A DNA stretch of 24,000 nucleotides from Algisphaera agarilytica (GTDB lineage: Bacteria; Planctomycetota; Phycisphaerae; Phycisphaerales; Phycisphaeraceae). This document shows, in pieces, positions 14,824-24,000 of this stretch; within the stretch, counting starts at the first letter, position 1, and the number at the start of each line of letters is the position of its first letter. The translations under genes and the position numbers were made by a program. Under the pieces are notes generated by a model that worked only from the letters and a program-made list of their open reading frames with translations, was not told where the DNA came from and did not search any database. The DNA lies in assembly GCF_014207595.1 (NCBI RefSeq), contig NZ_JACHGY010000001.1:3604212-3628211 (forward strand), in the 5' to 3' direction.

Positions 14824-14877
14824 AGCAAAAGTTTACCGTTTTCGCCCAGAAGTGTTGTTGACAAAGCTCTGCGTGGA

Positions 14878-15207
14878 TCAACCCTCCGCCTTGCGGAAGA
14901 CGGCCACGACGTTGGCCACGGGCACGACAAACAGCCGGTTGTCGCCCTCGAAATCGACCGGAATCGCGTCTTTGGGGTTGAACAGCACGCGGTCGTACTG
15001 CTCGATGGGGTATTTCTCGTCGACGGCGACCTCGGCCGAGACGGTCACGACCCGGCCGGTGAGGGTGGGGATTTCGATCTTGTCGGGCAGGTGGATGCCG
15101 GACTTGGTCTGCTTCTTGTCCTGGTCCTTGCGGATCAGCACGCGCTTCCCGATGGGCTCGACGGTTTCGAGCGGCTGGGGTTTGGAGGTTGGGGTGGATT
15201 GACTCAT
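14878..15207 (-). CDS. GroES/Cpn10-fold co-chaperonin-like protein (orphan, no groEL downstream)
   Basis: VEPIGKRVLIRKDQDKKQTKSGIHLPDKIEIPTLTGRVVTVS...YDRVLFNP...VVPVANVVAVF aligns by eye with GroES (IxPLxDRVLVK..E.KTxGGIxLP.....K...G.VVAVG...GD.V.F..........I....DILA). An extra 16-aa N-terminal tail is present. Confidence 0.6.
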   Translation of the reverse strand: MSQSTPTSKPQPLETVEPIGKRVLIRKDQDKKQTKSGIHLPDKIEIPTLTGRVVTVSAEVAVDEKYPIEQYDRVLFNPKDAIPVDFEGDNRLFVVPVANVVAVFRKAEG

Positions 15208-15328
15208 AGCTGAGCTATTTTAGAGCTTTCCCCAGCCGACTTCTAGCGGGCACGTTGTCGCAGCGATGCGGATGTGCTGATCACGACTACATCTGGGGAA
15301 CAAATTTCGTATCTTGTGCGTTGCTATA

Positions 15329-15373
15329 GGCACGTGCCGGTCCGTCGCCTCGAAGCGGACGGACTCCGGTTTT
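15329..15373 (+). promoter_or_regulatory. 10-bp perfect palindrome GGCACGTGCC overlapping a terminator-like hairpin plus T4, 24 nt upstream of the DinB-family ATG
   Basis: Palindrome at 15329-15338; a half-site GGCACGT also occurs at 15249-15255. Hairpin 15337-15369 (ccgg-tccgtc-gc / loop ctcgaa / gc-g-gacgga-ct-ccgg: 12 bp, two bulges) is followed by tttt at 15370-15373. Confidence 0.3.
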
Positions 15374-15396
15374 GATCGCGGTATCCGAGGCTCCCC

Positions 15397-15966
15397 ATGA
15401 CCGATTCGTCCCTAGCTCCCCACCAACTTTCCGAGGCGGCCCCTGTGGTGCTCGATCACGTCGGCCCGCTGCGTGAAGTCCTGGGCCAACTCGCCCGGCT
15501 CGTCGATCAACTCGACGACACCGCCTACAACACCAAGCCCGTCACAACCTACGGCGGCAGCATCGGCGGCCACGTCCGCCACTGCCTCGACCATGTGAGC
15601 GCCCTGCTCTGCGGAACCCATGGCGACCTCATCGACTACGAGGCTCGTGAACGCGGCACCGACATCGAAACCAACCCCGTCTCGGCCTGCTCCGAGCTGC
15701 AGCGCCTCGACACGGCTCTGGCCGAGCTGCCCGAAGACGTCGGCCAACTGGAGGTGACCACCTCCATCCTGCTCACCCCGTCGGGCCCCGCGCTCAAAGC
15801 CCCGTCGAGCGTGGCCCGCGAACTCGCCTTCGTGCTCAGCCACACCATCCACCACAACGCCATGATCGGCGGCATGGCCAAAGCCCTGGGCAGCGACGTC
15901 CCCGCAGACTTCGGCATGGCCCCGGGCACCCTCGAACACCAACGCAAGCGTCAAGCCCAGGCTTGA
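15397..15966 (+). CDS. DinB-family (DinB_2/YfiT-like) metal-binding four-helix-bundle protein
   Basis: 189 aa. His-triad pattern GGHVRHCLDHV ... LSHTIHHNAMIGGM is typical of the DinB superfamily. Confidence 0.7.
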   Translation: MTDSSLAPHQLSEAAPVVLDHVGPLREVLGQLARLVDQLDDTAYNTKPVTTYGGSIGGHVRHCLDHVSALLCGTHGDLIDYEARERGTDIETNPVSACSELQRLDTALAELPEDVGQLEVTTSILLTPSGPALKAPSSVARELAFVLSHTIHHNAMIGGMAKALGSDVPADFGMAPGTLEHQRKRQAQA

Positions 15967-16049: not shown

Positions 16050-16793
16050 ATGTGCACCGCCACCCTGATTCAAACCGACCCGTCCGCCCCGGCCCTCCGC
16101 CTGGTGACCAATCGCGACGAGTTGCACACCCGCCTTCCCGCCGATCCGCCGGAGATACGCACGTTCGGGGACTACCAGACGCTGCTCCCGATCGACCCGC
16201 AGAGCGACGGCACCTGGATCGCCGTCAACGAAGCGGGGCTGGTCATCACCCTGCTGAACCTCAACCCCGAGCAAGCACCGACGCCACGGCCGGGCCTGCG
16301 TAGCCGTGGGGGCGTGGTGCCATCGTTGATGGGTTGTTCGACCGTGAAGCAAGCGATCGAGATCGCAAAAGAACTGCCCACTCAGACGATGATGCCGTTC
16401 CGCTTGCTGCTTGCGGACCGAGACAACGTCGCCACGGTGCGTGCCGACGGGCAATCCGTGGCCACCGCGGTGCACCCGATTGCCGACGCCCCGGTGATGC
16501 TGACCAGCTCCGGGCTGGGCGATCACATCGTCGAAGGGCCTCGGCGTGACCTGTTTGAGAGTGCCCCGCCCCGCGACGCCGAGGCTCAGGATGCGTTCCA
16601 CCGCCACCGCTGGCCGGACCGCACGCCTGTCTCGGTCGCGATGTGCCGGGAAGACGCCCGCACCGTCAGCCGCACCGTCGTGGAGATCGACGCCCATCGG
16701 GTGCAGATGCACTACACGCCCGTCTCCATGTACGGCGGGGAAGGGGAACTCCAAGTGTTGACCTTGCCCCTGCGAGCCGAGGCCAAGGGGTGA
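16050..16793 (+). CDS. NRDE-family (TANGO2-like) protein
   Basis: The N-terminal MCTATL (Cys2) and the eponymous LVTNRDE motif sit at the expected position near residue 20. The protein is 247 aa. The stop TGA 16791-16793 overlaps the GTG 16790-16792 of the next gene. Confidence 0.8.
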   Translation: MCTATLIQTDPSAPALRLVTNRDELHTRLPADPPEIRTFGDYQTLLPIDPQSDGTWIAVNEAGLVITLLNLNPEQAPTPRPGLRSRGGVVPSLMGCSTVKQAIEIAKELPTQTMMPFRLLLADRDNVATVRADGQSVATAVHPIADAPVMLTSSGLGDHIVEGPRRDLFESAPPRDAEAQDAFHRHRWPDRTPVSVAMCREDARTVSRTVVEIDAHRVQMHYTPVSMYGGEGELQVLTLPLRAEAKG

Positions 16794-19483
16794 CCACGAT
16801 CAAGAAGCAACCCCGCAAACCTCGCCGAGCGCGTCGGCCGTTCCTGCGTCAGCGGTGGTGGAAGGTGTATGGGCTGCTGGTCGTTTTGTCGTTTGGCGTG
16901 CAAACCTACCGCAACGCCAACACGCCATTGGATGGTGAGCCGGGAACAGCGATGGTGCAGACCCCCGCGTTCACCAAGGAGGGCGGCGGGGGCGAAGCCC
17001 GGGTGGATTTCGCGTACATCGATACGGACCTCAAAGCGGGTTCCGCCGCCTCACCAGCAGATGGTGTCGAATCCGATGAACGCCCCGTGCTGATTCTCAT
17101 CCACGGCTCGCCGGGGGCGAAAAAGAATTTCAGCCTGCTGATCCCCACGCTCGAATCGCATTTCCGAGTGATCGCGCCGGACATGCCGGGCTTCGGGGAT
17201 TCGTCGAAGTGGATTCCGTCCTACAGCACCCGTGCCCACGCCCGCTACGTGCTGGAGCTCATGGACCAGCTCGAGATTGAGTCGGCCCACATCCTTGGCT
17301 TCTCCATGGGCGGCGGGGTCGCGCTCAACCTTTTCGACCTTGCGCCCGAGCGCCTCGAATCGATCATCTTCTACGGCGCGATCGGCATCCAGGAAGGCGA
17401 GGGCACCGGCGACTACGGGTTCGAACACTTCAAGTACACCGTGGGCTACGGTGCTTTGGTGGCGGCGCCCGAGTTGGTTCCGCACTTCGGCTTGCTCGGG
17501 CCCCGGTGGTTCCGCCACTCGTTTATCCGCAACTTCAACGACACGGACCAGCGGCCGATGCGCGGGTACCTCGAGGCGATGAACACGGCCGACACGCCGT
17601 TCCTGATCCTGCAGGGCTACAACGACCCGCTCGTCCCCGAGTGGACCGCCCGTCAGCACCACAACATCGTCGAGCACAGCGAACTGGTGATGTTCGACCG
17701 CTCGCACTTCATGGTGTTCGATCAAAAGGGCGCGGCGATGCTGGCCGAGGAGATCGTCCCGTTTGTCGAACGGTTCAGCACGCCCGGAGCGGTGCCGACG
17801 CGGCGGACCGTGATGGGCCCGCACTTTGAAGAAGACCAGCCCAGCATCTTGCCTGTGGCTCTGGACATCCCGCGGGGCACAAACCCGTGGTGGACGGTGG
17901 CGGTGATTTCTGCGGCGAGCTATGTGCTCGAAGACCCGGTGACGATCACGGTCGGGCTGATGATCCGGGACGGGAAGATCGATGCGTTTCTCGGCGTCTT
18001 CGCGGTGTTCATCGGCATCTTCACCGGCGACTTGTTGCTCTACCTGATGGGCGTGATTTTCGGTCGGCGGGCGCTGGCGTGGGGCCCGGTCGCCAAGCGT
18101 TTGCCCGCCCGGCACGTCGAGGCGCTTGGGCACTGGTTCGACACGCACGGCTGGTCGGCCGTGTTGGCGTCGCGGTTCCTCCCGGGGACTCGGCTGCCGC
18201 TGTACGTCGGGGCGGGGGCGCTGGGCAAGAAGCCCGGGCGGTTTGCGTTGTGGACCTTCCTGGCGGTGATGATCTGGGCCCCGGTGATGTTGCTGCTGGT
18301 GGTCTTGCTGGGCGAAGCAGCGGCGAGCCCGTTCAAGCTGCTGTTTGGTGACAGCTGGATCGCCCTGATCGGCGTGGTGATGGTGCTGTTGATGGTGGTG
18401 CGGGTTGTGATGCAGCTCCCGACCAAGCGGGGGCGGCAAGGGCTTTGGGTGAAACTCAGTCGGGTCTGGCGGTGGGAGTTCTGGCCGATGTCGCTGTTCT
18501 ATCTGCCGCTGGTGCCGTGGCTGGTCTGGTTGGCGCTGCGGTATCGGTCTACGACGGTGTGGACGCTGGCCAACCCGGGCCTGCCGGATGGCGGGGTGGT
18601 GGGTGAATCCAAAGCCGAGATCACCGCGGCGCTGTGCACGCCGACGGACGAGCACGTCCTGCCCGCGGTGCTGGTGCGTGATGCCGACGAGGCGCGGCGC
18701 GCGATGGCCGAGAAGGGCTGGTCGCTGCCCGTGATCGTGAAGCCCGATGCGGCGCAACGCGGAGCGGGGGTTCGGCTGATCGAGCCGGGCGAAGACTTCG
18801 ATGAATACTTCGGCGACTCACAGGCGCCTGCGATTTTGCAGAAGTACCACCCCGGGCCGTTCGAGGCGGGCGTGTTCTACACCCGCACGCCCGGTGAGCC
18901 GCGTGGCCGAATCTTCTCGATCACCGACAAGCACTTCCCGCACCTCACCGGCGACGGCGAGTCGACGCTGGAAGAATTGATCTGGGCCCACCCGCGCTAC
19001 CGCATGCAGGCGTCGGTCTTCCTGCAGCGGTTCGAGGACGCCAACGAACGCGTCCTGGCCGAGGGCGAAACGCTCCGTCTGGCGATGGCGGGCAACCACT
19101 GCCAGGGCACGCTGTTTGCCGATGGTGGGCATCTGATCACGCCCGAACTCGAAGCGGCTGTGGATGAGGTCGTGCAGCGGGTGGAGGGGTTCTACTTCGG
19201 CCGGCTTGATGTGCGGTACGCCGAGGTGGAGTCTTTCAAACGGGGCGAGGACTTTGCCGTGGTCGAGCTCAACGGCGTGACCAGCGAATCGACGAATATC
19301 TACGACCCCAAGTGGTCGCTATTGCGGGCGTACCGCACGCTGTTTCGCCAGTGGGCCGTCTGCTTTGCGATTGGTGATGCCAACCGAAAACGCGACGGGT
19401 TGGAGCCGCCCAAGGCCTGGGCGCTGATCAAGCGTGTGCGGCGTTACTACAAGCAGCGGCAGTTCGACCTGCACGCGGACTAG
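16790..19483 (+). CDS. Tri-domain membrane protein: N-terminal TM anchor, alpha/beta-hydrolase, DedA/VTT (SNARE-associated) membrane domain, C-terminal ATP-grasp ligase-like domain
   Basis: Track ORF 16643..19483 trimmed to GTG 16790 (GTGA overlap with the NRDE stop), giving 897 aa. It begins with a basic N-terminus and a TM helix (KKQPRKPRRARRPFLRQRWWKVYGLLVVLSFGV). The hydrolase (about 16985-17776) shows LILIHGSPGA, the nucleophile elbow GFSMGG (Ser codon 17303-17305), GYNDPLVP and DRSHFMVF. The DedA-like region (about 17876-18538) shows FTGDLLLYLMG...SRFLPGTRLPLYVGAGALG. The ATP-grasp-like region (about 18560-19480) shows LPVIVKPDAAQRGAGVRLI ... FAVVELNGVTSESTNIYD. Confidence 0.75.
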   Translation: MTTIKKQPRKPRRARRPFLRQRWWKVYGLLVVLSFGVQTYRNANTPLDGEPGTAMVQTPAFTKEGGGGEARVDFAYIDTDLKAGSAASPADGVESDERPVLILIHGSPGAKKNFSLLIPTLESHFRVIAPDMPGFGDSSKWIPSYSTRAHARYVLELMDQLEIESAHILGFSMGGGVALNLFDLAPERLESIIFYGAIGIQEGEGTGDYGFEHFKYTVGYGALVAAPELVPHFGLLGPRWFRHSFIRNFNDTDQRPMRGYLEAMNTADTPFLILQGYNDPLVPEWTARQHHNIVEHSELVMFDRSHFMVFDQKGAAMLAEEIVPFVERFSTPGAVPTRRTVMGPHFEEDQPSILPVALDIPRGTNPWWTVAVISAASYVLEDPVTITVGLMIRDGKIDAFLGVFAVFIGIFTGDLLLYLMGVIFGRRALAWGPVAKRLPARHVEALGHWFDTHGWSAVLASRFLPGTRLPLYVGAGALGKKPGRFALWTFLAVMIWAPVMLLLVVLLGEAAASPFKLLFGDSWIALIGVVMVLLMVVRVVMQLPTKRGRQGLWVKLSRVWRWEFWPMSLFYLPLVPWLVWLALRYRSTTVWTLANPGLPDGGVVGESKAEITAALCTPTDEHVLPAVLVRDADEARRAMAEKGWSLPVIVKPDAAQRGAGVRLIEPGEDFDEYFGDSQAPAILQKYHPGPFEAGVFYTRTPGEPRGRIFSITDKHFPHLTGDGESTLEELIWAHPRYRMQASVFLQRFEDANERVLAEGETLRLAMAGNHCQGTLFADGGHLITPELEAAVDEVVQRVEGFYFGRLDVRYAEVESFKRGEDFAVVELNGVTSESTNIYDPKWSLLRAYRTLFRQWAVCFAIGDANRKRDGLEPPKAWALIKRVRRYYKQRQFDLHAD

Positions 19484-19495
19484 TGTCAGGGTGTG

Positions 19496-20239
19496 TCACT
19501 GAAGCCGCTGGATGGTGGTGGCGTCGATCTTGAACCACGCCAGGTCGCCGTGCTGTTCGATGGTTCCCTCGGCCGAGATCGGGTCGGCGATGTAGGGCTC
19601 GATGGAATCGAAAACCGCCTGGCCCTCGCTGTCGGTCAGCAGGTAGAGCTTCCGCTCATCGCCCGGGGTTTTGGTGAGAAACATCGGGGGGATGCCGCCC
19701 TTGATGCAGAGCGTCGCGCACGCCTTATGGATCTTGCCCTCGCCCGGCTTCATCGCGCCGAGGTAACACTTGGGGTCGATGATCTGCCCGATGAGTTGGA
19801 AGCGGCCCTCGGGTTCAGCATCGGGTGTTGCCACCGAGGGTTCGCCGTCTGCGGCTTCGATGCCCGACTCGTTGTCCAATAGGGTGAGCATCGCTCGGCC
19901 GTCCCGCTCGACCACGTTGCCCCGAACGGTGACGCGTTGCCCGGCGTGGCTCGCCACACGGTCGCGTACGCCGGTCTTGCCCTGCGAAACCAGGAGGATG
20001 GTTTGCAGCCCGTCGTCAGCCGCGGTGAGTACCGCGGGGTACGGTTCAGCGATCAGCAGGCCGGTGTAGGCGTCGGCCTGGCTCAGGTCCCACGAGCCGG
20101 TGCCGGGGTCGTTCTGTTGTGCGGGGATGAGGCCCGCGATGAGCACGCCCGCGACAAGCAACACGGGCAAGAGCACCAGCAACCGGCCCCGGATCCCCTT
20201 GGGCACCGGGAGGTATCCGACATAGAACTCACGCTTCAT
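19496..20239 (-). CDS. N-terminally TM-anchored, predicted periplasmic protein with a conserved-looking Cys/His cluster; unknown function
   Basis: 247 aa. MKREFYVGYLPVPKGIRGRLLVLLPVLLVAGVLIAGLI is a signal anchor. The motif is IIDPKCYLGAMKPGEGKIHKACATLCIKGGIPPMF (C-x16-C-x3-C with one His). The ATG 20237-20239 overlaps the upstream Rieske gene by 11 nt. Confidence 0.6.
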   Translation of the reverse strand: MKREFYVGYLPVPKGIRGRLLVLLPVLLVAGVLIAGLIPAQQNDPGTGSWDLSQADAYTGLLIAEPYPAVLTAADDGLQTILLVSQGKTGVRDRVASHAGQRVTVRGNVVERDGRAMLTLLDNESGIEAADGEPSVATPDAEPEGRFQLIGQIIDPKCYLGAMKPGEGKIHKACATLCIKGGIPPMFLTKTPGDERKLYLLTDSEGQAVFDSIEPYIADPISAEGTIEQHGDLAWFKIDATTIQRLQ

Positions 20240-21311
20240 GGTTCGACTCCGGTGGGGGGGAGGCTTCGATCGTGGCGGGCTCGACCGCCGTGCCCGGCGG
20301 CAACGGCTCGGGGTTCACCAGGATGCGCGAGCCCTGAACGCTGACCCGGTAGGTCGGGATTTTCTCGGTGAACGGCGGCGGGGATTGACCGTTGTGCGGG
20401 AGGTATTGGTAGCCGTGCCACGGGCAGGTGAGGCAGCCGTCGACGACTTTGCCTTCGCCGAGTGGCCCGTGCTGGTGGGCGCAGACGTTGCTGACCGCCG
20501 AGACCTTGCCGTCGTATTTCAGGACGGCGATGCGTTCGCTTCCCGCGAGGGTGACGACCTTGCCGTAGCCATCTTCGATGTCGTTCACATCAGCGACATC
20601 GATCCATTCCTGGTCGTCGGTGTTCGGGGCGGCGGCATCTTTGCGCCACTCACGCCAACCCGTGATCAGGTGCAGGCCCGCGATCATGACAAAGCCCAGC
20701 ACCAGCAGCCCGATGTACAAGACACTCGGGTTGCTCTGCAACGCGCCGAGGACGACATGCATCACCAGCAGTGCATACGCCACGTAGACCAGCGTGTGCA
20801 GCGTCTTCCAGGTGCGCGGCCCGAGGTTCGCCAACCAGAAGTCGTGGCTCGTGGCGGCCATGAGGAACAGGATCAAGAGGGCGATGAAGCCCAGCGGCTG
20901 GAAGGGGAACGCGGCGATCTGGTCGTAGTTGCCGTTGCTGGTGAAGATCGAGACGATCGGGTTGACCACCCCGAAGCCGTGGTACCACAGCGTCGCAAGG
21001 GCCGCGTGGAGGAATGCGAGGATGAACATGGTGACGCCCATATGACGCCGGTTGTACAGCAGCGGCGCGAACACCCCCGGCCAGAGCCGAGCCAAGGGGC
21101 CGATGCAGAGGATCAGGTGGAGCAGGATGATCGCCGCCGTGCCGAACGCGCGGATGAGCAGCGTCATCGGCGTGATGCCGTTGTCGCCGGACAGTGCCAG
21201 CGAACTCACGACGACAAAGACGACGAGATACAGCCCCACGCCGCCCGCGAGCAGCAGGTCGTACACCTTCTTGTGCTTGTTCCATTGCACCGCGCGGTAG
21301 GCATGGCTCAT
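20229..21311 (-). CDS. Ferric-reductase-like (MsrQ/YedZ-type, 6-TM, dihaem-b) domain fused to a C-terminal Rieske [2Fe-2S] domain
   Basis: 360 aa with six hydrophobic helices and conserved-position His residues (LLHLILC, RRHMG, AFLHAAL, LHTLVYV, VMHVVLG). The C-terminal CAHQHGPLGEGKVVDGCLTCPWHGYQY is the Rieske signature CxH-x16-CxxH. The start ATG 21309-21311 overlaps the upstream stop (ATGA). Confidence 0.8.
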   Translation of the reverse strand: MSHAYRAVQWNKHKKVYDLLLAGGVGLYLVVFVVVSSLALSGDNGITPMTLLIRAFGTAAIILLHLILCIGPLARLWPGVFAPLLYNRRHMGVTMFILAFLHAALATLWYHGFGVVNPIVSIFTSNGNYDQIAAFPFQPLGFIALLILFLMAATSHDFWLANLGPRTWKTLHTLVYVAYALLVMHVVLGALQSNPSVLYIGLLVLGFVMIAGLHLITGWREWRKDAAAPNTDDQEWIDVADVNDIEDGYGKVVTLAGSERIAVLKYDGKVSAVSNVCAHQHGPLGEGKVVDGCLTCPWHGYQYLPHNGQSPPPFTEKIPTYRVSVQGSRILVNPEPLPPGTAVEPATIEASPPPESNHEA

Positions 21312-21493
21312 GGCTTGGCCTCCTGCGGGGGTGTTGCCTCGGCGGCAGGCGGGCTGGTTTCTTCAATCGCGATCGGCCCCTCGGAGATCGCTTCGGGTGG
21401 CCGTTGGCTTAGTCCGAGCGCGATCCCGATACCGACCAGCGGAGCAAGGAGTAACCACACCAGGACATGACGGCGGCGGGCTTGGCGCTTCAT
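21308..21493 (-). CDS. Mini membrane protein (61 aa, one TM, acidic Pro-rich tail)
   Basis: Track ORF 21308..21724(-) trimmed to the ATG 21491-21493: MKRQARRRHVLVWLLLAPLVGIGIALGLSQRPPEAISEG.... ATGA overlaps are present at both ends (21490-21493 and 21308-21311). Confidence 0.5.
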   Translation of the reverse strand: MKRQARRRHVLVWLLLAPLVGIGIALGLSQRPPEAISEGPIAIEETSPPAAEATPPQEAKP

Positions 21494-21738
21494 GCTTCGC
21501 TCCCCGCTGCGTTGTGATTCGAGACTAGCTTCCTTACCAGCAAAGGCCAGAGCGCGGCCGTTCCCGGCAGGATGAGCAAGCGGAAACCCCACGGCCCGTC
21601 TTTCGCGGCCGGATCGAGCCGTCCCACGCCGGTGAATACAAACCACACCGCGAACAGCAGTCCAATGCCCGCGTACGCCCCCAGGCCGATGACGATGTAA
21701 TGTGCCCAACCCATGACAGACCAACCTTCAACATCCAC
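21490..21738 (-). CDS. Mini membrane protein (74-82 aa, two TM), first gene of the Rieske operon
   Basis: The start is GTG 21738 or ATG 21714 (MGWAHYIVIGLGAYAGIGLLFAVWFVF ... FRLLILPGTAALWPLLV). The stop overlaps the next start (ATGA). I recognised no family. Confidence 0.5.
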   Translation of the reverse strand: MDVEGWSVMGWAHYIVIGLGAYAGIGLLFAVWFVFTGVGRLDPAAKDGPWGFRLLILPGTAALWPLLVRKLVSNHNAAGSEA

Positions 21739-21808
21739 GATTCATTCCCCCGCGGAAATATTTACCGGCCGATTCAAGTTTCATGGATGACCTCCACATT
21801 GGAACCGG

Positions 21809-22279
21809 ATGATGATGCGATATCAAATCTTTTTCGTGTTGTGTTTACTCATGACGGCCCCTCAAGCTTTGAGCCAAGCCGACGGAAACGTCGATAAGAA
21901 CGGCGTGGCGATCAAGGGCTACGACCCCGTGGCCTACTTCCCCGACCACGGCGGCGAGGCGACCAAAGGCAAGAAGGACATCACCGCCGAGTACAACGGG
22001 GCGGTCTATCGTTTTGCCAGTGAAGCCAACCGGGACGTGTTCCTGAGCGATCCCGAGGCCTACGCCCCGGCCTACGGCGGGTGGTGTGCCTACGCCATGG
22101 CCGACGGGAAACCCGTGACCGTGGACCCCAAACGCTTCGAGGTTCACGACGGCCGGTTGTTCTTGTTCTACCGCGACTGGTTTACCGACACGCTCAAGCC
22201 CTGGCAGAAAGACCGCGACACTCTTCGGGACCGGGCAGACCGGGCGTGGAGTGAGATCGTGGAAGAATCGGAAGGTTGA
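21809..22279 (+). CDS. Secreted YHS-domain protein
   Basis: Signal peptide MMMRYQIFFVLCLLMTAPQALSQA, followed by GYDPVAYF...G......Y.GAVYRFASEANRDVFLSDPEAYAPAYGGWCAYAMA, the typical YHS-domain pattern. 156 aa. A small 7-bp hairpin (22292-22308) follows the stop. Confidence 0.8.
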   Translation: MMMRYQIFFVLCLLMTAPQALSQADGNVDKNGVAIKGYDPVAYFPDHGGEATKGKKDITAEYNGAVYRFASEANRDVFLSDPEAYAPAYGGWCAYAMADGKPVTVDPKRFEVHDGRLFLFYRDWFTDTLKPWQKDRDTLRDRADRAWSEIVEESEG

Positions 22280-22326: not shown

Positions 22327-24000
22327 TTATTCGGTCACGCCGTGGTGTTTGCGGTAGGCGTCCCATGCCTCAGCCCCGAAGTAACGCTTGCCGAGCGCCT
22401 TTGGCATGTTGGGTATGTCGATAAGCATCAGGCCGTCGAGCACGTTGCCGAATTCGGGGTCGACGTTGAAACCCAGGAACTGGGCGTTGAGCTTGAGGTA
22501 CTGCCGCAGCAGCACGGGCATGGGTTTGCCGTCCGCTTCGATCTCACGGACCAGGTGGCCGACTTCTTCGAGGTTGGAGGCCACGGTCGAGAACGCCGCG
22601 CGGTCCCAGTCGCGGGTACGCCGACGCGAGGGCGGGTTCTTGGGGCGGATCTGGCTGGCGAGGTTTGGCAGGAACCGGTGCAGCTGCAGGAACGTCATCA
22701 GCAGGTTCTTCGACATCGACGTGTAGTTCGCGCTGATGCTCACCGGGCCGAAGAGGTGGCGGTACCGCGGGTGCAGCGCGGCGTAGGCGGCGATGCCTTT
22801 CCACAGCAGCTGCAACGGTTGGTAGCTGCGCTGGTAGTCGGGGTGGACGAACGACCGCCCCAGCTCGAGCGCGGGGGTGACCTGCTTGATGAGTTTTTTG
22901 CGGAAATTGAAGAGGGTGCTGGTGTAGAGCCCCTTGACGCCGAGGCTGGGCAGGATTTCGTCGGTCGGGCCCATGCGGTAGCTGCCCACGATCTCGGCGG
23001 TGTTGCGGTTCCAGACGAGCAGGTGCAGGTAGTGGTCGTCGAAGCGGTCGAGGTCACAGGCTTTGCCCGAGCCCTCGCCGACCTGGCGGAAGGTGATCTC
23101 GCGGAGTCGGCCGATCTCGCGGAGCAGGGCGGACATCTGCGGTCGTCGGGCGTAGAGCACGTCGTACTCGCCGCTCTGCATCAGGGTTTGCTGCGGGGGC
23201 AGGGCGCCGATCTCCTCGGCCAGGACCTCGGGCGATTCGGGCGGGATGATCGGGGCGTATTTGGAGTCGTCGGGCCGGGCCGATAGGTCGATCTGCCGGT
23301 GACGTGGACGCAGCAGGTACGTCCGCACCCGCAGGTAGTTGGTGAGTTGTTCACGGCCCTCGAGCTTGCTGGTACGCTCGGGCGGGATCGGGGCGCCGAT
23401 GACCATGGGTACCCGTGATCGGCGGCGCTTGAGCAGTTCGTGCGGCAGCATCGCCGAACGCAGGGTGGGGTGGACGAACCCGGCGATCTGGAAGAGGTTG
23501 CTGTTGCGTCCATCGAAGAACACCGGCACCACGGTCGCGCCGGTCCGTTGGATGATCCGCGCAGTCGCGCTCTGCCAGGGCGGGTCGGCGACGTTGCGTT
23601 GACGCAGGGTCAGGTGCGAGACCGCGCCGGAGGGGAACACGCCCAGGGCGTGACCGTCTCCGACCCACGACATCGACTGCCGGATGGCCGCGGCGTTGAG
23701 CCGCTTGGCCTGGGCGTCTTCGCCGAAAACATCCACGAAGAAGAACGTGTCGCGCAGCTCGGGGATGCACGAGAGCATCTCGTTGGCCAGCAGTTTCACG
23801 TCCGGCCGAACCCGACGGAGCAGCGATGCGAGGATGATCCCCTCGATCCCGCCGAACGGGTGATTCGCCACCACAACCAACGGCCCCTCCTTCGGGATCG
23901 CCTCGAGCGTTTCTTCGTTCAGGTCCAGGACGATCCGCATCACCTCGAGCGCCTTGTCGGCGAAGTGACGCTCCTGCCCCGGGTCGTGCGCGATGATGTT
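22327..24000 (-). CDS. OlsF-like bifunctional acyltransferase (N-terminal PlsC-type O-acyltransferase plus C-terminal OlsB/GNAT-type N-acyltransferase); 5' end outside the window
   Basis: The N-terminal part has VVVANHPFGGIEGIIL...GVFPSGAVSH (acyltransferase H-x4-[DE] and G blocks). The C-terminal part has LREITFRQVGEGSGKACDLDRFDDHYLHLLVWN...EIVGSYRMG...LELGRSFV (OlsB/hemolysin-like GNAT pattern). The frame stays open from 23943 to the window edge (..NIIAHDPGQERHFADKALEV-MRIV..), so the true start is probably beyond 24000. Confidence 0.7.
   Translation of the reverse strand, partial: NIIAHDPGQERHFADKALEVMRIVLDLNEETLEAIPKEGPLVVVANHPFGGIEGIILASLLRRVRPDVKLLANEMLSCIPELRDTFFFVDVFGEDAQAKRLNAAAIRQSMSWVGDGHALGVFPSGAVSHLTLRQRNVADPPWQSATARIIQRTGATVVPVFFDGRNSNLFQIAGFVHPTLRSAMLPHELLKRRRSRVPMVIGAPIPPERTSKLEGREQLTNYLRVRTYLLRPRHRQIDLSARPDDSKYAPIIPPESPEVLAEEIGALPPQQTLMQSGEYDVLYARRPQMSALLREIGRLREITFRQVGEGSGKACDLDRFDDHYLHLLVWNRNTAEIVGSYRMGPTDEILPSLGVKGLYTSTLFNFRKKLIKQVTPALELGRSFVHPDYQRSYQPLQLLWKGIAAYAALHPRYRHLFGPVSISANYTSMSKNLLMTFLQLHRFLPNLASQIRPKNPPSRRRTRDWDRAAFSTVASNLEEVGHLVREIEADGKPMPVLLRQYLKLNAQFLGFNVDPEFGNVLDGLMLIDIPNMPKALGKRYFGAEAWDAYRKHHGVTE

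Follow-up and report, generated by a model that had tools for sequence, protein, structure and literature searches.

A conserved four-gene membrane cassette centred on a ferric-reductase/Rieske fusion protein, a predicted variant of MsrPQ/NOX-type transmembrane electron transfer

To our knowledge, MsrPQ (YedYZ) alone among the bacterial members of the YedZ group of ferric reductase domain (FRD) proteins has been functionally characterised. Its membrane subunit in E. coli, MsrQ, has its N-terminus inside, six transmembrane (TM) helices and a single haem on the periplasmic side, ligated by H91 and H164, as well as a flavin mononucleotide (FMN) pocket lined by R77, R78, L131, S135, W147 and H151 (PMC12525009). 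The cytoplasmic reductant, a free flavin reductase (Fre), feeds a dedicated periplasmic partner encoded next door, the molybdoenzyme MsrP. We describe here a related cassette of four genes, named A, B, C and D, found in a 24,000-nucleotide stretch of the Algisphaera agarilytica genome (contig NZ_JACHGY010000001.1, positions 3,604,212 to 3,628,211; hereafter the window). Its central product, C, fuses an MsrQ-like membrane domain to a C-terminal Rieske [2Fe-2S] domain, and C is followed by a membrane-anchored protein, D. We conclude from domain composition, ligand conservation, topology, the association of C with D, synteny and co-occurrence that the cassette is a real, widespread and uncharacterised variant of MsrPQ/NOX-type transmembrane electron transfer. 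The electron-transfer function itself is proposed by analogy, D being the most likely recipient of the electrons, and the substrates named below are candidates.

Two other described systems are close enough to be compared. In NOX, FRE and bacterial 'long-form' FRD proteins such as SpNOX, the FRD and a C-terminal cytoplasmic electron-input domain lie on one polypeptide, as in C, and electrons flow outward, a direction that is also proposed for C. These proteins differ from C by their flavin adenine dinucleotide (FAD)/reduced nicotinamide adenine dinucleotide phosphate (NADPH) dehydrogenase input, their bis-haem signature and their use of O2 or metal chelates as acceptor; C has a one-electron Rieske input, an Arg in place of the first haem His, and a proposed dedicated protein acceptor. 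The metalloreductases STEAP1-4 share with C an Arg in TM3, and the single outer haem and inner flavin site that this signature would imply for C. They are eukaryotic, with an N-terminal NADPH oxidoreductase domain, no protein acceptor, and a Gln where C and MsrQ have a His (H172 in C). In the classification given by Zhang et al. (PMC3591440), it is the Arg replacing the first canonical haem His that defines the YedZ/STEAP group. The same 2013 survey catalogues, with other extensions of bacterial FRDs, an FRD plus Rieske architecture, 'M4', in which the Rieske domain is called an 'electron transfer agent'; as far as its description of M4 goes, it gives the architecture alone, with no function, partners, operon or topology, and C is likened to M4 by domain combination only. 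Literature searches (FRD with Rieske; YHS with DinB; aminolipid with ATP-grasp and TANGO2) returned this catalogue of architectures and no functional study. An earlier reading of the window, made from the letters alone (hereafter the sequence-only reading), had likewise known of no characterised function for the module.

The four genes are coupled by overlaps: an ATGA at 21490-21493 joins A to B, another at 21308-21311 joins B to C, and the reading frames of C and D overlap by 11 nucleotides (nt; 20229-20239). The open reading frames (ORFs), their sizes and these three junctions all agree with the overlap-coupled operon initially proposed. A scan with one genome per species gave at least 596 loci with C, and more than 8000 scored homologues of C share its two-domain architecture. 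The set used for synteny comprises 87 loci, all with a full-length C, namely the best 80 of the at least 596 together with loci from other look-ups. It spans about 11 phyla (Planctomycetota, Bacteroidota, Acidobacteriota, Pseudomonadota (Hyphomonadaceae), Verrucomicrobiota, Gemmatimonadota, Balneolota, Rhodothermota, Nitrospirota, Spirochaetota, Kiritimatiellota, KSB1). Gene A is found upstream of C in 84 of the 87 loci, and D follows C directly on the same strand in 86 of 87, the sole exception being a contig end. Of 85 loci, 84 have a small B-like TM ORF in the interval from A to C. Synteny in other genomes, which the sequence-only reading had put forward as a check on its operon, is therefore found, the A-B-C-D order being kept in 84 to 86 of the 87 loci. 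Among the 48 C/D junctions with a start that could be placed, the two genes overlap in 31 and are separated by 20 nt or less in 12, with -4 (ATGA), -8 and -1 as common overlaps. Conservation of A-B-C-D is far beyond chance.

An accidental or annotation-level cluster, in which A and B would not be real genes, has a negligible probability. A and B are indeed short and without database family, and no sigma-70-like promoter was detected in a promoter scan that included the 70-nt divergent gap between gene A and the neighbouring YHS gene (21739-21808); a terminator scan gave weak hairpins only. However, order, strand and motifs are kept across the phyla sampled and the stop-start overlaps are themselves conserved, so that the synteny counts effectively refute this explanation.

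The cassette is patchy. C was present in 11 of 151 Planctomycetota genomes at least 90% complete, with D adjacent to it in all 11 carriers, and in 8 of 121 Flavobacteriaceae genomes, that is about 7% of the genomes in both samples. Despite this patchiness, identity across phyla is 50-65%. The tree of C mostly tracks phyla, needing 13 label changes where 10 would be the minimum, and shows a few cross-phylum placements. The Phycisphaerae clade holding the window protein is sister to marine Hyphomonadaceae with a support of 99. Cultured marine Flavobacteriaceae are among the carriers, and Flagellimonas flava DSM 22638 is an example of a carrier in culture.

C scores above the Pfam gathering cut-off of the FRD superfamily (Ferric_reduct, PF01794, residues 56-183, full model 1-121, E 2.7e-15, 56.9 bits for a cut-off of 28). 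A profile restricted to the FRD was aligned to E. coli MsrQ with hhalign (probability 91%, E 1.1e-6); run against PDB sequences, it gave no true match. In the TM3 region, the alignment pairs R88, R89, H90 and H102 of C with R77, R78, L79 and H91 of MsrQ, and further on M151, S155, W168, H172 and H185 with L131, S135, W147, H151 and H164. The canonical spacings R88-x13-H102 and H172-x12-H185 are kept. By this alignment the outer-haem ligands of C would be H102 and H185, both invariant among homologues. Five of the six FMN-pocket positions of MsrQ are also kept and invariant (R88, R89, S155, W168 and H172), while the sixth, L131 in MsrQ, is replaced by the invariant M151. The inner cofactor pocket of C is predicted to comprise N87, R88, R89, H90, S155, H156, W168, H172 and H214, all invariant; H90, H156 and H214 are extra compared to MsrQ.

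These alignments led us to revise one element of the sequence-only reading, which had described a 'dihaem-b type' domain and had made it depend on conserved haem-ligand His pairs. The outer pair, H102/H185, is there, but the first His of the inner pair is an Arg, R88, and H90, which had been counted as a haem His, sits two residues out of the canonical register. Bis-haem NOX/FRE proteins have four canonical His, two in TM3 and two in TM5. With three of the four, C does not belong with them, and only Rieske models match C after TM6, rather than FAD/NADPH dehydrogenase domains. The TM3 Arg and the retained outer His pair place it in the YedZ/STEAP group. It is not MsrQ proper, as it scores 48.6 bits with the NCBIfam MsrQ model, for a cut-off of 130, and no molybdoenzyme (MsrP) is encoded in the cassette operon. 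Since an Arg occupies the position of the first canonical haem His and the FMN-pocket residues are kept, one outer haem is well supported, whereas a second, although possible, is not established. For the inner site, one option is a flavin, as in MsrQ; the other is a different cofactor using H90, H156, H214 or even the conserved His of B. This shift from two haems to an MsrQ-type haem and inner pocket changes the spectroscopy to be expected.

The Rieske domain matches Pfam PF00355 over residues 235-310 (E 6e-15, 55.4 bits for a cut-off of 20.3). Its motif reads C277-A-H279-x16-C296-P-W-H299, the four ligands being invariant in 50 homologues, and an additional Cys, C293, is invariant too. Both domains of the fusion being above their gathering scores, the ferric-reductase/Rieske fusion with a CxH-x16-CxxH motif was correctly read from the letters. 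Among proteins of solved structure, those closest to it in sequence are BphA3, the NDO ferredoxin and CarAc (E between 1.6e-11 and 3.9e-10). A Foldseek search with the model of a C-D fusion (see below), in which matches were dominated by the Rieske domain, returned Rieske ferredoxins with target template-modelling scores of 0.84-0.89 and a root-mean-square deviation of 1.7-1.9 Å. The high-potential Rieske proteins of bc1 and b6f complexes carry a disulfide Cys pair (CTHLGC ... CPCHGS) and are exported to the positive side of the membrane by the twin-arginine translocation (Tat) system. C has the CxH...CxxH boxes and the fold of PF00355, but its box I is C-A-H-Q-H-G, without the second Cys, and it has no twin-arginine motif. 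The domain is thus predicted to be closest to the soluble, low-potential ferredoxin type, as in ring-hydroxylating dioxygenases.

On which side of the membrane C and D lie can be approached in two ways. First, C is homologous to MsrQ, whose N-terminus is inside, and has no twin-arginine signal, which places the Rieske domain in the cytoplasm and D in the periplasm. Second, 11 natural proteins of 600-639 aa were found in which C and D are fused, and in-frame, stop-free fusions occur at 6 of the 87 loci (L019, L042/L051/L060, L064 and L099), in at least three to four lineages of the C tree. The order in these proteins is FRD, Rieske, the motif F-Y-V-G-Y-L-P, a new TM helix and the D domain. An AlphaFold2 (AF2) model of a fusion (mean predicted local distance difference test, pLDDT, 86.2; predicted template-modelling score, pTM, 0.85) has a seventh TM helix at residues 371-397, between Rieske and D. 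This extra helix puts the two domains on opposite sides of the membrane. Independently of each other, MsrQ homology and the fusions agree with the cytoplasmic Rieske domain and periplasmic 247-aa protein of the sequence-only reading, which had relied on the positive-inside rule, and the physical linkage of C to D fixes the predicted topology, Rieske inside and D outside. The 11 fusions also served as bridges to build a combined alignment of C and D.

The cytoplasmic N-tail of D carries the same nearly invariant motif, F-Y-V-G-Y-L-P, and is followed by a TM helix (residues 14-41) and two periplasmic OB-like barrels (AF2 model from 53 sequences, pLDDT 92.6, pTM 0.84). The near-invariance of the tail suggests that it docks on the cytoplasmic face of C. 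A long signature (Table 1) is present in a loop-helix insertion of the second barrel. Its columns, including C158, M163, H171, C174 and C178, are invariant in the 53 sequences and in the 11 fusion proteins. The model has its lowest confidence in this block (pLDDT 65), which is common for cofactor-dependent loops. We regard it as a candidate redox, metal or thiol site. Because D is inserted in the membrane, has no Tat motif and is exported as a C-terminal domain in the fusions, a metal ion loaded in the periplasm or a thiol centre seems a more plausible occupant than an Fe-S cluster. A stretch of the signature and the Rieske loops of C (20415-20483) share the pattern C-x7-G-E-G-K-x4-C-x-T in exact register.

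In a profile search of 1.84 billion representative proteins, D was found in 2687 clusters at 50% identity. In the 150 best clusters it occurs on its own (about 240-280 aa) or behind C in a fusion, and in no other form; two members of odd length are truncated Rieske-plus-D pieces. The sequence-only reading had seen in D the obvious acceptor. That D is a dedicated partner of C is borne out by its adjacency and by this restriction to standalone or C-fused forms, and it would probably be the acceptor too.

Searches with D gave nothing above noise in Pfam and NCBIfam, and no Foldseek match in the PDB at E <=1e-3, the best ones being generic OB folds (HIN, LysRS, Mpa). We also considered whether the site of D might be a divergent Rieske-like cluster loop, and rejected it: hhalign of the D and C profiles gave a probability of 0.75% (E 0.075, 24 columns), and the folds differ.

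Such a fold, two OB-like barrels without a redox-protein relative, is one reason to consider that D may not be the acceptor at all. In that case the complex would be the same, but the site of D would hold structural zinc or work as a thiol switch, and D, together with the long forms of B described below, would serve for substrate binding, scaffolding or sensing; the outer haem would directly reduce a diffusible acceptor, Fe3+, Cu2+, O2 or quinone, as STEAP, FRE and NOX do. It fits with the membership of C in the YedZ/STEAP group, where the eukaryotic proteins reduce ferric and cupric ions, and with the gene for a YHS protein, a domain generally tied to metal binding, that lies within 10 kb of C in 23 of the 87 loci. 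On the other hand, an invariant Met and several charged residues would be unusual for a purely structural zinc site, and a protein found only with C, and repeatedly fused to it, looks more like an obligate partner in electron transfer than like an adaptor that could be dispensed with. We consider a non-acceptor D unlikely.

The two small subunits had been left without assigned family, and Pfam and NCBIfam indeed gave no match above noise for A or for B, short or long forms, including the extra domain of the latter. The A family has the consensus G.Y...G.LFA..FV..G....DP.A.G...GFRLLILPG..ALWP.LL.RW. (86 sequences). BLAST with B found matches at only 6 of the 87 loci. In the window B has R6-x-x-H9 and W13 at the cytoplasmic edge of its TM helix. 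The R-x-x-H motif precedes the TM helix in 83 of 84 B-like ORFs, usually followed by the Trp (R-x-x-H-x-x-x-W). Given a hydrophobic ORF in 84 of 85 loci and this motif in 83 of 84, B is a genuine conserved family, with B-like ORFs in the loci L013-L099. Short forms (30-65 aa) are of the window type; long forms of 120-170 aa, found in other genomes, have an extra periplasmic domain, some 100 aa in length, in which a PDLLVYW-like motif occurs.

We next consider where electrons could come from. Genes within 10 kb of C were counted in the 87 loci. Two of the recurrent neighbours are Rieske-fused enzymes, a Rieske-thiamine pyrophosphate (TPP) enzyme at 26 loci and a Rieske-GltB-like FMN enzyme at 22. 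In Flavobacteriaceae, the Rieske-TPP gene was found in all 8 carriers of the cassette, always adjacent to it, and in 4 of 113 non-carriers; in Planctomycetota, in 5 of 11 carriers and 2 of 140 non-carriers. These counts, like those given below for ATP-grasp, are descriptive, as related genomes are not independent. In NCBIfam, the TPP part is best matched by the pyruvate oxidase and PoxB models (E 1.8e-114), with scores that stay under their equivalog cut-offs. Pyruvate oxidase and PoxB are flavoenzymes which free electrons from a 2-oxoacid. Between Acidobacteriota, Flavobacteriaceae and Planctomycetota, the Rieske-TPP enzyme is 60-74% identical over some 650 aa (query L018:7576-9546), which is unusually high.

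Taken together, we think that A, B, C and D probably form one inner-membrane complex with ten TM helices, which would act as an outward, MsrQ/NOX-type transmembrane electron conduit to D. A cytoplasmic donor would first reduce the low-potential Rieske domain of C. In many genomes this donor is probably the Rieske-fused, pyruvate-oxidase-like TPP/flavin enzyme, and in some it could be the Rieske-fused GltB-like FMN enzyme or an FMN reductase. Electrons would then pass from the Rieske domain into the MsrQ-type pocket (R88, R89, S155, W168 and H172, with H90, H156 and H214), whose inner cofactor would be a flavin as in MsrQ and STEAP or possibly a second haem, and from there to the outer haem b on H102/H185. 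The haem would deliver them to periplasmic D, where the invariant Cys3-His-Met site would be the acceptor. D would in turn reduce a periplasmic or outer-leaflet substrate, for which the YHS Cys/Sec protein and the products of the aminolipid and DedA-ATP-grasp genes are candidates. What is inferred in this scheme is which way electrons run, which cofactor fills the inner pocket, that D is redox-active, and what it reduces.

Compared to MsrPQ, with which it shares a six-TM FRD of the YedZ/STEAP signature, aligned outer-haem ligands and five FMN-pocket residues, and would share the overall logic of cytoplasmic reductant and dedicated periplasmic partner, such a system would differ by a fused Rieske [2Fe-2S] input instead of Fre, by the OB-fold Cys/His/Met protein D, anchored in the membrane, instead of MsrP, and by the small membrane subunits A and B.

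Electrons could also run the other way. D or B would take them from a periplasmic donor or metal, and the haem and then the Rieske domain would relay them to Rieske-fused enzymes of the cytoplasm, for instance the GltB-like FMN/Fe-S one. GltB-type FMN domains normally consume electrons, and the genes for the Rieske-fused form are present in the loci counted above; moreover, published MsrQ potentials suggest ubiquinone as a possible acceptor, with reverse or branched paths in the family (PMC12525009). Nevertheless, the characterised FRD proteins, as presented in PMC12525009 and PMC3591440, all move electrons outward. The partner most tightly linked to the cassette is a PoxB-like oxidative decarboxylase, which produces electrons, and a low-potential Rieske domain of the ferredoxin type would be a poor sink for electrons of a b haem. 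We hold inward flow to be quite improbable.

Several observations nevertheless weigh against an outward conduit ending on D. D resembles no known redox protein in Pfam or, by Foldseek, in the PDB, and zinc with a structural role could occupy its Cys3-His site. The case for outward flow is an analogy, to MsrQ, NOX and STEAP, together with the donor-like character of the PoxB-type enzyme. Many cassette loci lack every proposed donor within 10 kb. In A. agarilytica itself, no Rieske-GltB homologue was found in the genome, and the Rieske-TPP gene lies 148 kb from the cassette and reads as frameshifted (L101:1474-3449; G000:C1:3772563-3774508). Frame +1 encodes residues 7-244 of the latter and frame +3 residues 231-656, with a switch near ...ctcgaaaagcctttggggg... 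The gene is otherwise 65-72% identical to an acidobacterial orthologue, with no other stops, and the switch comes either from a recent frameshift or from an error in the assembly. In another genome (G090) the Rieske-TPP gene is also split, at a different place (residues 378/393).

If the outward conduit is true, the cassette would be a second system of this kind in the YedZ group, with a much wider distribution than MsrPQ. Its iron-sulfur input would be hard-wired, and its periplasmic acceptor would be of a new kind. Through it, a new way for aerobic heterotrophs to spend the reducing power of the cytoplasm in the envelope could come to light. Defining A, B and D, three subunits of four with no family, would give a name to thousands of 'hypothetical proteins'.

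Table 1. Features of the window discussed in the text (positions counted from the first nucleotide of the window).
Feature	Position	Strand	Description
Gene A	21490-21738	minus	two TM; GTG start at 21738 gives 82 aa, ATG at 21714 gives 74 aa
Gene B	21308-21493	minus	61 aa, single TM, short form
B motif R-x-x-H, W	21455-21478	minus	R6 to W13
Gene C	20229-21311	minus	360 aa; six-TM ferric-reductase domain (MsrQ-like) and C-terminal Rieske [2Fe-2S] domain
FRD membrane domain	20655-21263	minus	C residues 17-219
Rieske domain	20316-20609	minus	C residues 235-332
Gene D	19496-20239	minus	247 aa; one TM and two OB-like beta-barrels
D N-tail	20201-20227	minus	F-Y-V-G-Y-L-P
D signature	19685-19777	minus	D155-P-K-C158-x-x-G-x-M163-K-P-G-E-G-K-x-H171-x-x-C174-A-x-x-C178-x-x-G-G-I-P-P185
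DinB_2	15397-15966	plus	Pfam/NCBIfam; convergent on the operon
TANGO2	16050-16793	plus	Pfam/NCBIfam; convergent on the operon
Hydrolase-DedA/VTT-ATP-grasp fusion	16643 or 16790 to 19483	plus	Pfam/NCBIfam; convergent on the operon
YHS-domain protein, secreted	21809-22279	plus	divergent from the operon; NCBIfam NF041384, E 7e-38, 129 bits for a cut-off of 70
OlsF-like fused O-/N-acyltransferase (aminolipid synthase)	22327-23943	minus	NCBIfam OlsF, E 5.8e-121, below the family cut-off

The remaining genes found repeatedly within 10 kb of C are ATP-grasp (28 of the 87 loci), DinB_2 (27), TANGO2 (22), DoxX-like (18), DedA/VTT (17) and OlsF-like (16), in addition to the YHS gene. ATP-grasp genes co-occur with the cassette in Planctomycetota (9 of 11 carriers, 9 of 140 non-carriers) and in Flavobacteriaceae (6 of 8 carriers, 18 of 113 non-carriers). 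In Flagellimonas and Croceitalea (L028, L032 and L045), a single co-directional run holds Rieske-GltS, Rieske-TPP, A, B, C, D, YHS, DinB, TANGO2 and ATP-grasp. The window corresponds to the second half of this pattern, with DinB, TANGO2 and the ATP-grasp fusion converging on the operon, and YHS, then OlsF, on the other side. The YHS family NF041384 is listed as a selenoprotein family with a GxU motif (PMC13188914); the window protein is the Cys form, GGWC. It is a candidate for a downstream periplasmic redox partner. Because the cassette is linked with aminolipid genes and with a TANGO2 homologue of bacteria, it offers a concrete handle on the disease-related TANGO2 family, the function of which is poorly understood.

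These neighbours invite a broader picture, which we put forward as doubtful: the cassette would be the membrane hub of a 'Rieske-plug' network, where cytoplasmic enzymes that share an N-terminal Rieske domain (a PoxB-like 2-oxoacid oxidase, a GltB-like FMN enzyme, an FMN reductase) dock on the Rieske domain of C and electrons are exported, by an MsrQ-like route over flavin and haem, to D. In this picture D would represent a class of periplasmic OB-fold Cys3-His-Met redox proteins not known before. D and the YHS Cys/Sec protein would then drive the reductive repair or modification of envelope aminolipids made and flipped by the products of the OlsF, DedA-ATP-grasp, TANGO2 and DinB genes.

Two further groups of genes were noticed around the cassette in Planctomycetota. 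A glycoside hydrolase of the MGH1-like/GH63 type lies near the cassette or the Rieske-TPP gene in three genomes, A. agarilytica included (L016:1-2508, L019:6075-8837 and L106:1357-4053). Genes for an extracytoplasmic function (ECF) sigma factor and a zf-HC2 (ZAS-type) anti-sigma factor adjoin the cassette at two loci (L019:11921-12792; L016:2853-3098 and 14867-15457), which hints at a control by envelope or thiol stress.

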